A stretch of DNA of 64,000 nucleotides from Ginglymostoma cirratum (lineage: Eukaryota), in NCBI GenBank assembly GCA_024137785.1, contig JAHRHZ010000030.1, positions 36,378,037 through 36,442,036 of the forward strand, read 5' to 3'. The notes under the pieces are model-generated. The model saw nothing but the letters and a program-made list of their open reading frames with translations, made no database searches and had not been told where the DNA came from. A program made the translations under genes and the position numbers. This document shows, piece after piece, positions 1 to 53,118 of this stretch. How positions within the stretch are numbered: the first letter of the stretch is position 1; each line of letters opens with the position of its first letter.

Positions 1-135
1 GAAAAGCTCAGCAGGTCTGGCAGCACCTGTGGAGAGAAATTAGTTAATGTTTCAGGTCGAGTGACCCTTCCTCAGAACCTCTCCCCACAGATGTTGCCTG
101 ATCTGAACATTTCTAGCAATTTTTGTTTTTATTCT
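1..135. mobile_element. Penelope-derived inverted-repeat element, truncated by the window edge
   Basis: gcaggtctggcagcacctgtggagag arm and a degenerate complementary arm; minus-strand CTGAGGA-AGGGTC...GACCT-GAAA-CA-TT hammerhead-like core. Confidence 0.65.
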
Positions 136-9799: not shown

Positions 9800-10003
9800 G
9801 AGAGAACATTACTGCAGGTGTTGGAATCTATACTGAAAACACAAAAAAAAAGTGCTGGAAATCACAGTGGGTCAGGCAGCATCCATGGAGAGACAGCAAG
9901 CTAACAGCTCTGATGAAGGGTCATCTAGGCTCAAAATGTTAGCTTGCTCTATGCCCATAGATGCTAAGTGACCCATTGATTTCCAGCATTTTTTGTTTTC
10001 AGG
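9800..10003. mobile_element. Penelope-derived inverted-repeat element with a decayed hammerhead motif
   Basis: CTGATGA at 9910, AGGGTC-atcta-GGCTC, AAAA in place of GAAA; complementary arms. Confidence 0.7.
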
Positions 10004-10744
10004 TCAACACTGATGACTTCTGAACTGAATTAATAAATAAACTTGCTCACCCTAGATTCTTTTGAATTGAAAACACAGTTAATGACCTTACATGCATATA
10101 CTACAGGTCATAAACCCAACGGTGTAAACACCTTTCTTTTAACGCCATAGGGTCTGCAGTCTCCTACTCTCTGACAAAATGTTGGAATTAAACACTTTTC
10201 CAGAAGGACTCCCTGAACTTGTTTTTGTTTTGGAAAAGAAAACCATTCACAGAAATAACCAACACCCAGCTGCCTTTATTCTGAAATCTAAATTCCAAAA
10301 ATTATATTAATACACGTATAAAAGTCATACATCTATCACCACATCAGGATAATCTTCATTTGCTGAAAAAATGAAGTTAACTGGCATTAAAAACAGGAAA
10401 CATATAGCACATCAATCAGTAACCTGGAAGAAAAAAGCTGGGCATGGGTCACTAGTTAATTGGACTCTTTACAAGTGCTGTGAATGTCTATCCAGTGACC
10501 ATGATGAATTCTTCTCTCTTCAGCTTTGCAAAGCCCTGCAAAAGTGTCTCATCTGTCTTTGTGCAATCTTTACAAAAGAAACTTCATCCAAAACTAACAC
10601 TTTTTAAAAAAAAACTATTAATTTTCACTATTTCAGCCTTGGCTTGGCTCAAATCATCGACTCATGTTGCTTATGGATCTTTTCACCATAATTTAAATGC
10701 ATGTACAAAATTGATTCTTTTTGGTCAGTCTTCATCATTAAAAC

Positions 10745-11062
10745 TAGACAATGCCCGAAATACTCAGCAGGTCTGGCAGCATCTGTGAAGACAAACAGAA
10801 GCGATAAACATTTCAGGCCAACAGCCTTACTTAGAACTGGAAAAAGTTACAAATATGACTGGCTTTAAGCAAGTGCATTTAATTTCTCTGTGATTGACCT
10901 TTCCCTTTAACTCTTTCGTTTTATTTGCACTTGCTTGAAGTCTGTTTACTTGTTAAGAGTTTCCACTTCTGAAAAACATCAATAAGCCAAAACTTTATAT
11001 CTATTTCTATGTTCACAGATGCTGCCAGATCTACTGAGATTTTCCTGTGTCTTCTATTTATA
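10745..11062. mobile_element. Old Penelope-derived inverted-repeat element
   Basis: ctcagcaggtctggcagcatctgtgaa is complementary to ttcacagatgctgccagatctactgag. Confidence 0.65.
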
Positions 11063-11830: not shown

Positions 11831-11913
11831 AATTCAAGGTCACTGGATAAGGTAACAAGAGCCGGTGCAACCCGCTTGTCAATTAAGGCTTCATTCATGC
11901 CTCGCACGATCAG
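11831..11913 (-). CDS. RELCH: RELCH mutually exclusive exon, downstream copy: LIVRGMNEALIDKRVAPALVTLSSDLE(F)
   Basis: 83 nt, ttacag acceptor, gtgagt donor; paralogous to 12734-12816. Confidence 0.92.
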
Positions 11914-12733: not shown

Positions 12734-12816
12734 ATTTCAGGGTCACTGGAGAGAGTGATAAGAGCAGGGACAACTCTCTGAGCTACCAGAGTTTCATTCA
12801 CCCCCTTCACCAACAG
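12734..12816 (-). CDS. RELCH: RELCH mutually exclusive exon, upstream copy: LLVKGVNETLVAQRVVPALITLSSDPE(I)
   Basis: 83 nt, aatcag acceptor, gtaagt donor; same length and phases as 11831-11913. Confidence 0.92.
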
Positions 12817-14044
12817 CTGATTGGGCAGAACAAGGGATGTCACATGTGATACGTAGAAAGAGTGAGCAGAGTATCATGGGAAGTAGCATGGCACATCGAA
12901 GAGAGAGAGGAACAAAAGACCAAACAAAAATTAGAGAAGCAACAATTTCTACAGAACAGCTCAACATTTACAGGGTTTGAAACACTACAGCAGCTCAAAA
13001 TTTCTATGGAATAGCAGCACATACCAAAGCTGATCAGCTGATCCACAGATTTATTTCCGAAAAGAATCCCACAATATCAAACAAAAACTGATAATTAGCT
13101 GTCTCACATCTATAACATTGGAGGAATTATTTTATATTAATATTGCTGCCCACATAAGTAATCCAATATTAAAAAAAAACTTTCTGGCCTACTTATTTTA
13201 AATATTAAGGAATAATTCAAAGCACATCTAAATCCCTACAGTACATTTTGGATGTGTGAAATAAAAGATTATTAGAGGTTACTACTTGCATCAAATTTAT
13301 TCCTCAAATGACAGAAACTGAGTTCAAAAAATTATTTTTTCCAAATAATAACATATATAAACAAACTTTACCAGGCCAGTATGCAGTAAGTGGATAGATG
13401 TGCGTTACAAAGTCTACTTTTTCTGGGTATATCCCTGGGATTAGTCAGTCATTCAATGACAGATCAAGTTCTAACTGTAACATTCTAGATTTCACAACCT
13501 GCTGGCTACAGGATAGTAAATATATTTAATAATGTAGCTTAAAACACATTTTCCCCCTATAAAATGAAGGGTAAATGTGAAATGAGAACCTCATTTATAA
13601 AAATAAAAATATCCAATGAGCCTGCTTTGCCACTCAATTTCAAAGCTGATTTTCCTCCATGTCATATTCCTGTCCTATCGGATGCCTTAGTTTCCAAAAA
13701 TCTCCCAATTGTTATTTTGAATATACTCATCTGTCTGCAGCTCTCAGAGTCAAAGAATCCTTCCCATCTTAGACCTAAATAGTGACTTATTGCCATGAGA
13801 CATAGCCTCTTAACTCCTTCCCCTCCCTAGATTTTCCATTCACAGTAAACAGACTCTCAGACTCTAGTCTATTAAGTCATACCCACAAAGGCCACCAACA
13901 TCCCCACTCCGCTGAAACTTCCCTGAATTTGAAATTGAAGTACTACCAGCAGACGCTGTCTTGCAGTGCACAACGCTGTTCAAAAATAACAAGCATGGGG
14001 CTGGATGAACACAGCAGGTCAAGCAGCATCATAGGAGCAGGAAA

Positions 14045-14080
14045 ACTTGACGTTTCGGGCCTAAACCCTTCATCAGAAAT
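14045..14080 (-). ncRNA. Mirror copy of the hammerhead motif, in the sense of the RELCH pre-mRNA
   Basis: Exact reverse complement of 14197-14232. Confidence 0.72.
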
Positions 14081-14196
14081 GGGGGAGACGCCTCTTCGAC
14101 TTGTCTGCCTCCTCTCCACCTATCCTCTCCTCTATCCATCCTCTATCCGCCTCCCCCTCTCTCCCTATTTATTTCAGAACCCTCTTCCCCTCCCCC

Positions 14197-14232
14197 ATTT
14201 CTGATGAAGGGTTTAGGCCCGAAACGTCAAGT
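14197..14232 (+). ncRNA. Minimal type I hammerhead ribozyme motif
   Basis: ATTT-CTGATGA-A-GGG-tttagg-CCC-GAAA-CG-TC-AAGT: complete core, stem II, ACGT palindrome in place of stem III, GUC triplet ending at 14228. Confidence 0.75.
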
Positions 14233-14707
14233 TTTCCTGCTCCTATGATGCTGCTTGACCTGCTGTGTTCATCCAGCCCCATGCTTATCATCTCGGATTC
14301 TCCAGCATCTGCAGTACCTTTTATCACTGTTCAAAAATATCTGTGTTGAATCAGGTCTGCCAGCTTTGGTAAGGTACAGAAGCACAAAAACATCTCACCC
14401 TGGCAGACAAAGCTTACATTTTAAAGCAAGGAAGAATCTAAAAAAACACTTTGATCGACTAAAACACAGTAGCTGATAACAGAAGTAATAATTGCAATCA
14501 CACACAATTCTACGTTAATAGATATTTCACTATGGTAACATTTTATATTGAAGTCATTCAACTCCCATTCGGCTGTACTCTAATGAGAAGGGCAAGTGCT
14601 GCCCTATTAATATCTATGTTACGTAGAATATCAATCGCATTTTCAGGAAGCTGATTCTTTTTTACATCTGATTTTTGTTAAAAGAATGATTTCATTGAAA
14701 TTCTTAC

Positions 14708-14807
14708 CTCAAACATTCTAGCAGCAGTGCATCTAACAAGCGCTGAAGTGTGCACAACACCATACCACAAAACTGTTAACAGCAGCTCATGGTATGCTGG
14801 ATTTGCT
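14708..14807 (-). CDS. RELCH: RELCH exon (G)ANPAYHELLLTVLWYGVVHTSALVRCTAARMFE
   Basis: 100 nt, tgctag acceptor, gtaaga donor. Confidence 0.96.
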
Positions 14808-20257: not shown

Positions 20258-20562
20258 CTAAAAGAAGATAAAATTGATTCATGATTGAGACATATATATG
20301 GCTGGTCATGTTTTCAAGAGAAGCATTTGCCAATTCTCCTCTCAAATTTTGTGGATGCATTAAAATTCATTAACTTTTGGCATGCTTGCTGAATTTAATC
20401 CTATAAGAGTAGAATATTCCCAGTTTGGTCCCATTGCTGATCTCAGGTGGGTGCACAGCAGTCTCACAAGGGCTTGTTCCTTCACATGCTTGGGTGCAGT
20501 GGCACTGGGAGCATAATTTGCATTAGATTCCCACTGATACAAAGTCCTGACCATTCTGAAAT

Positions 20563-21260
20563 TCAGAAGTCACATGACACCAGGTTATAGTCCAACAGGT
20601 TTATTCAAAACCACAAGTTTTTGGAGTGCTGCTCCATCATTAGCTGCAGTGGGAGGGAAATGCACAGACGCAGAACATATAGACAAAGAGATAAAGGTAA
20701 TTAAGAGTGTGTCGACAGACAAGTACAAATAGGGTGATTGGCGCATTGACAGGTTGAATAACAAGTCTTTGCAGGTGATCAAGAGTGTCAAACAGCGTGA
20801 ATTAAATGTCAATGGCTGAGTAACAAGTGAAGGGATGACCTATGAACCGATTAATTAAGGCAGATGGACAATTAAAATACTCAAAAATAAGATGGTGCGG
20901 GAGACAGACTAAATGGTTGGAATAACATGATAGGAATTAGAGTTGCATGAGAAAAGTCTAACCAAAGTGACAAGTAATCCAAAATTATACAAACTAATTG
21001 ATTTAGAGAGATAGTAACAAGTTATTAAGACAACACTTAATATTTGACACGATCACCTTGACACACTTAATTACCTGGAATTACCTTTATCTCATCTATT
21101 TATTCTATGCCTGTGTGCTCCCCTCCCACTTCAGCTGACCAAGGAGCAGCACTCCAAAAGCTTGTGATTTTGAATAAATTTTGAATAAAGGACTATAACC
21201 TGGTATTGTGTGAATATTGCTTTTGTCCACACCAGCCCAACAACAGCAACTCCACATCAT
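20563..21260. mobile_element. Second Penelope-like family, fragment with inverted ends
   Basis: Ends near 20570-20715 and 21060-21215 are imperfect complements; decayed motif CTGACCA-AGGAGC-agc-ACTCC-AAAA-GC-TT at 21135. Confidence 0.65.
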
Positions 21261-52574: not shown

Positions 52575-53118
52575 AGATAGCAAGAACTGCAGATGCCAGA
52601 GTCAGAAATAACACGTACGCAACAAACGACAACACCCTCTGGTTGCCACCCATTTTGACTCCCCCCTCCCCACTCCTATTCTCTGGGTGACATGACCATC
52701 CTGGGCCTCCTCCAGTGTCACAGTGACACCACCTGCAAACTGGAGGAGCAGCACCTCGGGAGCTTCCTGTCCGATGGGCTAAACACGGAATTCACCAGTT
52801 TTAAAAATTTCCCCACACCCAGCCTCATCCCACTACCAACTCTCCCTCTCATCCCCGCCTCCTTGACCTGACGCAACCTGTCCATCTTCTCTCCCACCTA
52901 TCCACCCCTCCCACCCCACTGACCAATCCCCACCACTCTCTACCTGCACTCACCTACCACCATCCCCCTACCTTCCCTAGCCCCACCCCTTCTCTCTATA
53001 TATTTCAGAGCTCCCTTCCCCCTCCATTTCTGAAGAAGGGTCTCGACTCGAAACATCAACTTTCCTGCTCCCCTGAAGCTGCCTGGCCTCCTGTGCTTCT
53101 CCAGCTCCATACTGAGTG
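52575..53118 (+). mobile_element. Penelope-like element 3' end: GIY-YIG C-terminal remnant, pyrimidine tract and hammerhead-bearing terminus
   Basis: About 52636-52806 translates, with frameshift and deletion, to LVATHFDSP..SLGDMTILGLLQCHSDTTCKLEEQHL..GSFLSDGLNTEFTSF*; CTGAAGA-AGGGTC-tc-GACTC-GAAA-CA-TC at 53030-53057. Confidence 0.8.

Follow-up and report, generated by a model that had tools for sequence, protein, structure and literature searches.

A fold-back insertion in a RELCH intron

The window, meaning the whole 64,000-nt stretch of Ginglymostoma cirratum DNA that was analysed, carries part of the gene RELCH on its minus strand. Three shark RELCH proteins place the exons, and the best named matches of one exon are shark RELCH proteins with 93–98% identity; single RELCH exons searched against Pfam gave no significant match. 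Protein matches and exon mapping thus bear out the RELCH intron location given in the original prediction. The insertion described here lies in a 1,891-nt intron that leads to the first of two alternative 83-nt exons (Table 1), at 381 nt inside the donor of the preceding exon and 1,172 nt before the alternative one.

The two arms of the insertion, at 13991–14087 and 14190–14286, are exact reverse complements of 97 bp separated by a 102-nt spacer, and in this respect the perfect inverted repeat is as originally described. The full insertion measures 338 bp (13989–14326) and is flanked by a 13-bp target-site duplication, CTGTTCAAAAATA, that had not been noticed before. Its inverted copy of 99 bp is followed by one additional A and then by the direct copy; the latter measures 238 bp, and its final 38 nt, the tail, lie outside the repeat.

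Table 1. Features of the insertion and of the surrounding RELCH exons (window coordinates)
Feature	Position	Strand	Basis or remark
RELCH mutually exclusive exon, second	11831–11913	-	Ends read from sequence, ±2 nt
RELCH mutually exclusive exon, first	12734–12816	-	Protein-guided exon mapping
Target-site duplication, left copy	13976–13988	+	Last 3 bases (ATA) also fit family sequence at inverted-arm start
Inverted 5'-truncated copy of element end, 99 bp, without tail	13989–14087	-	Outer end at family mode
Minimal type I hammerhead motif, RELCH-sense	14045–14080	-	Predicted cleavage after 14049
Single extra A at copy junction	14088	.	Identical junction at one other genome site
Direct 5'-truncated copy of PLE terminal repeat region, 238 bp	14089–14326	+	29 other loci, 28 of them ~99% identical
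Hairpin loop, part of direct copy	14089–14189	+	Sequence
Minimal type I hammerhead motif	14197–14232	+	Predicted cleavage after C14228
PLE tail, 35–38 nt, direct copy only	14289–14326	+	TTATCTC at both tail ends in family sequence; tail as in the available text of PMC8557442 and PMC11167929
Target-site duplication, right copy	14327–14339	+	First bases (CTG) fit element's continuation
RELCH exon upstream of host intron	14708–14807	-	Protein-guided exon mapping

When the comparison is carried over the 99 bp of the left arm, which has the family's G at 13990, the right arm differs by a private A at 14287, and the mismatch is one base in 99. The direct copy departs from most relatives at both 14287 and 14289, and the 14287 variant has one match in the genome as compared with 26,313 for the common version. 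Two source subfamilies were rejected as the cause of this G/A difference because the right-arm variant is unique in the genome. With one arm mismatch and two private changes in the direct copy, neither zero arm divergence nor a very recent insertion can be upheld. At the mutation rate of 7e-10 per generation given for the epaulette shark (PMC10587355, in its available part), two changes in 337 bp would correspond, very loosely, to about 8 million generations; the rate is that of another species, and the two changes are possibly one event or reverse transcriptase (RT) errors. Relative to its family this copy is young, and it is not demonstrably polymorphic. The joint expected of an empty site in other individuals or in the related species did not occur among the 15 matches listed of 439, where coverage of the flanks is thin.

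One other site in the genome (L002; G000:C250:3027253–3027573) has the same junction with a different, 15-bp duplication, and is 94% identical to the window element; its own arms differ at four sites and an indel. Within the window element, a pyrimidine tract ending in TTTCAG (14160–14178) stands 19 nt before the probable RNA start discussed below, and because one copy in another locus (L085) starts exactly after it, the element may use this tract as a splice acceptor.

Hammerhead motifs in the two arms

Each arm holds a hammerhead motif, as originally proposed, except that the stem II first given as GGG/CCC is better read as a 4-bp GGGU/GCCC following an extra A. On the plus strand the motif comprises stem I AUUU (14197–14200), CUGAUGA (14201–14207), the extra A (14208), stem II (14209–14220, including a U-G pair, with loop UUAG), GAAA (14221–14224), CG, UC (14227–14228) and AAGU (14229–14232). 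The closest published likeness is the min-HHR of Penelope-like element (PLE) terminal repeats (Cervera and de la Pena 2014; PMC4209133), for which the available text describes dual motifs ~100–700 bp apart on opposite strands. The features shared with that description are the conserved core (CUGANGA, GAAA and UH boxes), an additional nucleotide that separates position 9 from 10.1 ahead of stem II, the G10.1–C11.1 pair, a helix I of 4–5 bp (4 bp here) and a palindromic helix III remnant, and they support the original assignment to the dimer-type minimal hammerheads. Stem II has 4 bp in the shark motif, whereas the Schistosoma families in the same source have 7–8. The whole motif is present in 35,387 exact copies in this genome, or about one per 120 kb, as against about 9,000 motifs in the richest vertebrate that the accessible part of PMC4209133 reports; shark terms were absent from two of its supplement files.

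Rfam, searched to an E value of 10, gave no hit to a hammerhead in the window, and the bare pattern CTGATGA..GAAA occurs there at chance level (3 found, 2.67 expected), so the standing of the motif rests on family evidence. Among 210 motifs collected in the genome with a search pattern that left out stem I and the palindrome, 182, 14, 4 and 4 belong to four motif families and 6 are unassigned. Stem I pairing amounts to 3.2–4.3 bp within these families and 0–1.9 bp across them, and in one family the palindrome ACGU has become AGCU. Such covariation in stem I and helix III between families points to selection that acted on the source elements and not on the window copy. The original prediction had taken a lack of stem II covariation across copies to count against it; no compensatory change in stem II was seen within the window element's family, which is uninformative in one young family, and it is between motif families that covariation is found. 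Two more, decayed minimal hammerhead motifs are present in the window, at 53023–53060 (plus strand) and near 60–100 (minus strand), the latter from another family.

In folding models of the element, the pairing probability of stem II rounds to 0 and the motif is 99.9% paired with the opposite arm; an active-like dimer reaches −5.1 kcal/mol as compared with −28.8 for the best co-fold. The sequestration originally proposed is therefore reproduced as a folding prediction, and the orientation of the element agrees with the antisense arm being transcribed first in RELCH pre-mRNA. Published minimal hammerheads show no cleavage as monomers and low cleavage as dimers in the available part of PMC4209133. 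Because of this behaviour, the predicted sequestration and the protein dependence of an anole hammerhead described below, both window motifs are predicted to be silent passengers. That silence is a by-product of the insertion and not evidence of design. Read ends in RNA data show no pile-up at the cleavage site, which is a weak test with a fragmented library.

The source family and the origin of the inverted arm

Longer copies of the family run upstream into GIY-YIG and RT coding sequence. The Pfam model RVT_1 matches locus L066, whose end carries the same terminal sequence (E 1.7e-7; 31.6 bits, cut-off 29.6), and GIY-YIG matches locus L011 above its cut-off (E 4.7e-6). The CCHH of the endonuclease is visible by eye in translation as a CxxC between two boxes and two downstream His, and in both loci the linker CNRRKCYTC (CX4CxxC) precedes the endonuclease. 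Linkers of the form CX2-5CxxC are assigned to Neptune and Nematis in the available text of PMC8557442, and the translated family sequence fits this Neptune/Nematis type. With RT, GIY-YIG, a hammerhead in the terminal repeat, tail, inverted copy and duplication, the element is an EN+ PLE. The coding domains, tail and duplication support the PLE origin first suggested for it, and the inverted terminal copy that had been expected is present as the 99-bp truncated arm. The longest open piece of the family is 483 aa, one locus (L067) is a partial tandem, and no full-length element was recovered among the family loci examined. One copy (L175:1480–1920) continues beyond the tail, enters a short frame starting MPTLKKLP and then returns to the terminal repeat; its jump-back point falls within a few bases of the start of the window's direct copy and is a possible second hot spot for breakpoints.

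A 37-mer of the tail region has 26,313 exact copies in the genome and a 25-mer downstream of the motif has 136,580. From 100 copies taken in order from two contigs (C1–C2), 30 have an inverted arm with a duplication, 8 an inverted arm only and 11 a simple truncation with a duplication, while 11 have the duplication elsewhere, 16 end at an assembly gap and 24 are not classifiable. An inverted arm thus occurs in 38 of the 100, so the arrangement is not special in the way that had been supposed, and opposite-strand minimal hammerhead pairs were published in 2014 (PMC4209133, available text). Target-site duplications are 13–16 bp long in 35 of 41 resolved copies, and by extrapolation the subfamily would contain ~10,000 such fold-backs. 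The locus is real and is an ordinary PLE fold-back of a known sort.

The accessible sections of PMC3846280 and PMC8557442 describe EN+ PLEs with the same head-to-head inverted copy, one-sided tail of 30–40 bp, target-site duplication and assembly gaps, the last of which interrupt 16 of 30 such fold-backs here. The duplications are longer in the shark family (13–16 bp) than in the rotifer examples of those papers (8–10 bp), and the window insertion, at only 338 bp, is unlike them. In many family fold-backs (L064–L156) the arms are separated by a run of exactly 400 N, which in some cases is flanked on either side by duplicated sequence, and it is likely that the hairpins break the assembly at these sites.

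We conclude, with a probability of roughly 0.88, that the locus holds a single truncated insertion of an abundant PLE, that both ends of a staggered 13-bp cut likely primed RT at two neighbouring sites on the RNA, and that the hammerheads are passengers predicted to be silent. In this scheme the bottom-strand end would have primed at the tail end and been extended by 238 nt, the top-strand end would have primed ~35 nt further in and been extended by 99 nt, and head-to-head joining of the two cDNAs would have left a single additional base between them. During transcription of RELCH the antisense arm would come first, and the sense motif would zip into the 97-bp helix on emerging, besides having neither a dimer partner nor the element's protein; the resulting hairpin would be a likely ADAR substrate and likely neutral for splicing.

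Inverted arms in the sample end 23–44 nt short of the tail end, and 26 of 38 end 31–36 nt short. Among 72 duplication-bounded head-to-head pairs, drawn from all family loci collected and chosen in several ways, 60 consist of one tailed arm and one arm 25–40 nt shorter. Both ends at which RT would have started lie at the repeated TTATCTC and often share two or three bases with the target. LINE-1 offers a precedent in twin priming, whereby both target ends prime cDNA and a 5' inversion results inside the target-site duplication; the pieces there cover different parts of the RNA, whereas the shark copies overlap and so form a true inverted repeat. Biochemistry is available for PAc (Poseidon of Anolis carolinensis; Frangieh et al. 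2024), in which, according to the available part of PMC11167929, two RT start sites bound the tail and both DNA strands are cut and extended in vitro. The same source reports that unprocessed RNA is the main substrate, that no RNA ends occur at the cleavage site and that the hammerhead needs protein. On the present reading the shark family resembles PAc in these respects, with two putative start sites at the tail and no clear excess of 5' ends at the cleavage site, but PAc belongs to the Poseidon clade, whereas the shark family has the CX4CxxC linker of Neptune/Nematis. The arm asymmetry, the TTATCTC ends and the anole biochemistry are most simply read as the priming of one cDNA by each of the target ends. 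We infer this two-ended priming from genomic structure, and the proposed connection between PAc's two start sites and inverted copies is our own, and is not one that PMC11167929 makes in its available part.

The main competitor is self-priming or copy-back on one template, as proposed for rotifer PLEs (PMC3846280, available text), and would fit the palindromic junctions seen at many family loci. It would also fit the finding that the arms of one insertion mostly carry the same subfamily variants (8 of 76 variant sites discordant, 28.5 expected at random), a concordance that suits one RNA read twice, contemporaneous RNAs and copy-back alike. Gap-free pairs are discordant at 8 of 76 sites and gapped pairs at 1 of 64 (p 0.07 when compared with three times the background), and a higher count of 36 of 189, made without the duplication filter, was discarded as inflated by neighbouring independent insertions. 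However, copy-back leaves unexplained the clustering of outer ends, the second TTATCTC and the short target matches at both ends; four of 46 gap-free pairs differ at 2–4 subfamily-variant sites, and the window junction has a 102-nt non-palindromic spacer. We therefore regard it as unlikely, and least improbable among the alternatives. That the hairpin is instead a non-autonomous unit moving whole, in the manner of a MITE or a retrozyme, is suggested by the second site with the same junction and a different duplication, but we consider it the least probable of all the readings. Family copies number in the tens of thousands, yet only two junction matches exist genome-wide; the second site is diverged from the first and within its own arms, arm lengths vary freely across the family, tandem units are absent, and the 38-nt tail lies outside the repeat. 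The tail outside the repeat and the two junction copies also led us to reject a MITE or other DNA transposon. Non-LTR retrozymes carry a type I hammerhead from PLE terminal repeats and include one chondrichthyan example (bioRxiv 10.64898/2026.07.22.740005, available text); they form head-to-tail arrays, whereas the window element is a single head-to-head insertion. A non-LTR retrozyme was accordingly rejected for the window, where one inverted pair is found in place of head-to-tail hammerhead units.

RNA start, editing and the RELCH exon pair

The 5' ends of family copies were counted with patterns requiring three non-family bases before a given position, and the numbers are raw, with no per-position denominators. 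By this measure 3,721 apparent ends coincide with A14197, at which stem I begins. The cleavage product A14229 has 640, as compared with 521, 189 and 139 at three control positions, and these raw, unnormalised counts give no clear excess at the cleavage site; 7 of 30 cleavage-site matches inspected by eye are small indels. From the A14197 group, 60 of 100 listed sites were taken, leaving out near-duplicates across gaps and sites already collected, and the preceding base is G in 39 of these 60. It is G in 17 of the 26 that lack upstream element DNA (background 0.24, p 1e-5) and in 1 of 17 in the cleavage-site group. RT stalling at the upstream C-rich tract would account for the pile-up and not for the G. 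The sequence CCATTTC around A14197 is one that we take to be Inr-like.

An added G in LINE-1 copies has been taken as a copied cap (PMC9341517, available text). Given the pile-up at A14197 together with the extra G, it is likely that many family insertions were copied from a capped RNA starting at stem I, and the lack of a clear cleavage-site excess suggests that this RNA was uncut at the hammerhead. The window copies probably had a read-through transcript as template, because both reach beyond A14197. A capped start at stem I with uncut copying was not found in the titles and abstracts listed by literature searches, a coverage outside which most subscription papers fall and in which the Penelope promoter paper (PMC2377424) is represented by its abstract. 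More tentatively, and at somewhat less than even odds, these copies may record a whole PLE cycle in vivo. Capped RNA would begin at the first base of stem I, each DNA end would have its own RT start at one of two TTATCTC sites, which lie ~95 and ~128 nt downstream, and synthesis would proceed through the uncut ribozyme to the cap; ~ten thousand young hairpins edited in ribozyme stem I would then be the shark counterpart of inverted Alu pairs.

Reads from a polyA RNA run with the same species label were compared with the stretch 13000–14690. Of 41,724 reads, almost all lie on the element, 93% continue into other sequence and the unique flanks are covered to a depth of 0–2, and for these reasons the signal is that of the family and not of the window locus; a second raw run gave 21 reads. 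Among the data sets listed as containing the sequence, none is labelled as RNA. The polyA run listed A-to-G changes at 31 sites, T-to-C at 18 and C-to-T at 15; in what is probably a DNA run from a related species these numbers were 9, 10 and 9. At 14248, G is found in 2,946 of 14,616 RNA reads (20%) and in 1,217 of 137,797 genomic copies (0.9%). At A14229 and A14230, the first stem I pairs, G reaches 21% and 15% in RNA, as compared with 4 of 137 and 1 of 141 in a genomic sample that is biased to young copies, the RNA being from a different animal. Other changes are also several-fold commoner in RNA than in that sample (C14278T, 34% versus 7%), and a few strongly expressed copies could dominate the RNA signal. 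A-to-I editing of the family RNA is nevertheless likely. The proposal that the hairpin is an ADAR substrate thus gains from the A-to-G excess at the level of the family, the evidence being family-wide rather than specific to this locus.

The locus alone is of little importance, and it is the family that carries the interest. The available part of PMC4209133 offers no in vivo evidence for a role of PLE hammerheads, and cleavage is dispensable in vitro in that of PMC11167929. With tens of thousands of young copies, the RNA start, the priming sites and cleavage can be examined statistically base by base, and biochemistry gains a defined RNA of 128 nt to work with. PLE insertions would, if the editing is true, be a large source of double-stranded RNA in sharks.

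A further proposal is that the host uses the hairpin or the ribozyme to steer the mutually exclusive exons. The distance from the insertion to the first alternative exon downstream is ~1.2 kb, and an RNA structure ('RELCH dock1') steers exon choice in human RELCH, which responds to an oligo against that structure (bioRxiv 10.64898/2026.05.17.725762, available text); PMC8609283, in its available part, deals with other exons. The purine-rich loop of the element also pairs with the exon's pyrimidine tract at −41.3, as compared with −33.0 for the best of 334 other windows. However, shuffled loops reach a mean of −43.0 and 202 of 300 are as good, so we attribute this pairing to composition, and the loop–tract pairing probability is 0 in the whole-intron fold. 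In the same kind of model, a crude equilibrium folding of the 2-kb intron, removing the element shifts the predicted openness of the branch point and pyrimidine tract of the first alternative exon from 0.388 to 0.387. With the modelled fold unchanged near the exon, the significance once attached to the nearness of the exons is not borne out. Docking or selector helices for the RELCH exon pair did not stand out, the two alternative exons long predate the insertion, and an intronic copy is unremarkable at the motif's genomic density. Steering of exon choice by the element is therefore very unlikely, and the single-insertion reading, with the hairpin as a bystander, is preferred. Among relatives, 36 use one exon, 22 the other and none both, with 34 of 92 unmatched by the motifs used.

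The first alternative exon has an apparent distant branch point (CUAAU) and pyrimidine tract ~75–120 nt before its acceptor (window ~12890–12939, minus strand). Elsewhere in the window, an inverted pair of another repeat family, 81% complementary and with a 411-nt spacer, lies at 20559–21224. Older, diverged inverted pairs resembling the same repeat class as the element are found at 10739–11062, 9865–9978 and 13–778, the first of them in the intron after the exon that follows the RELCH alternative exons.
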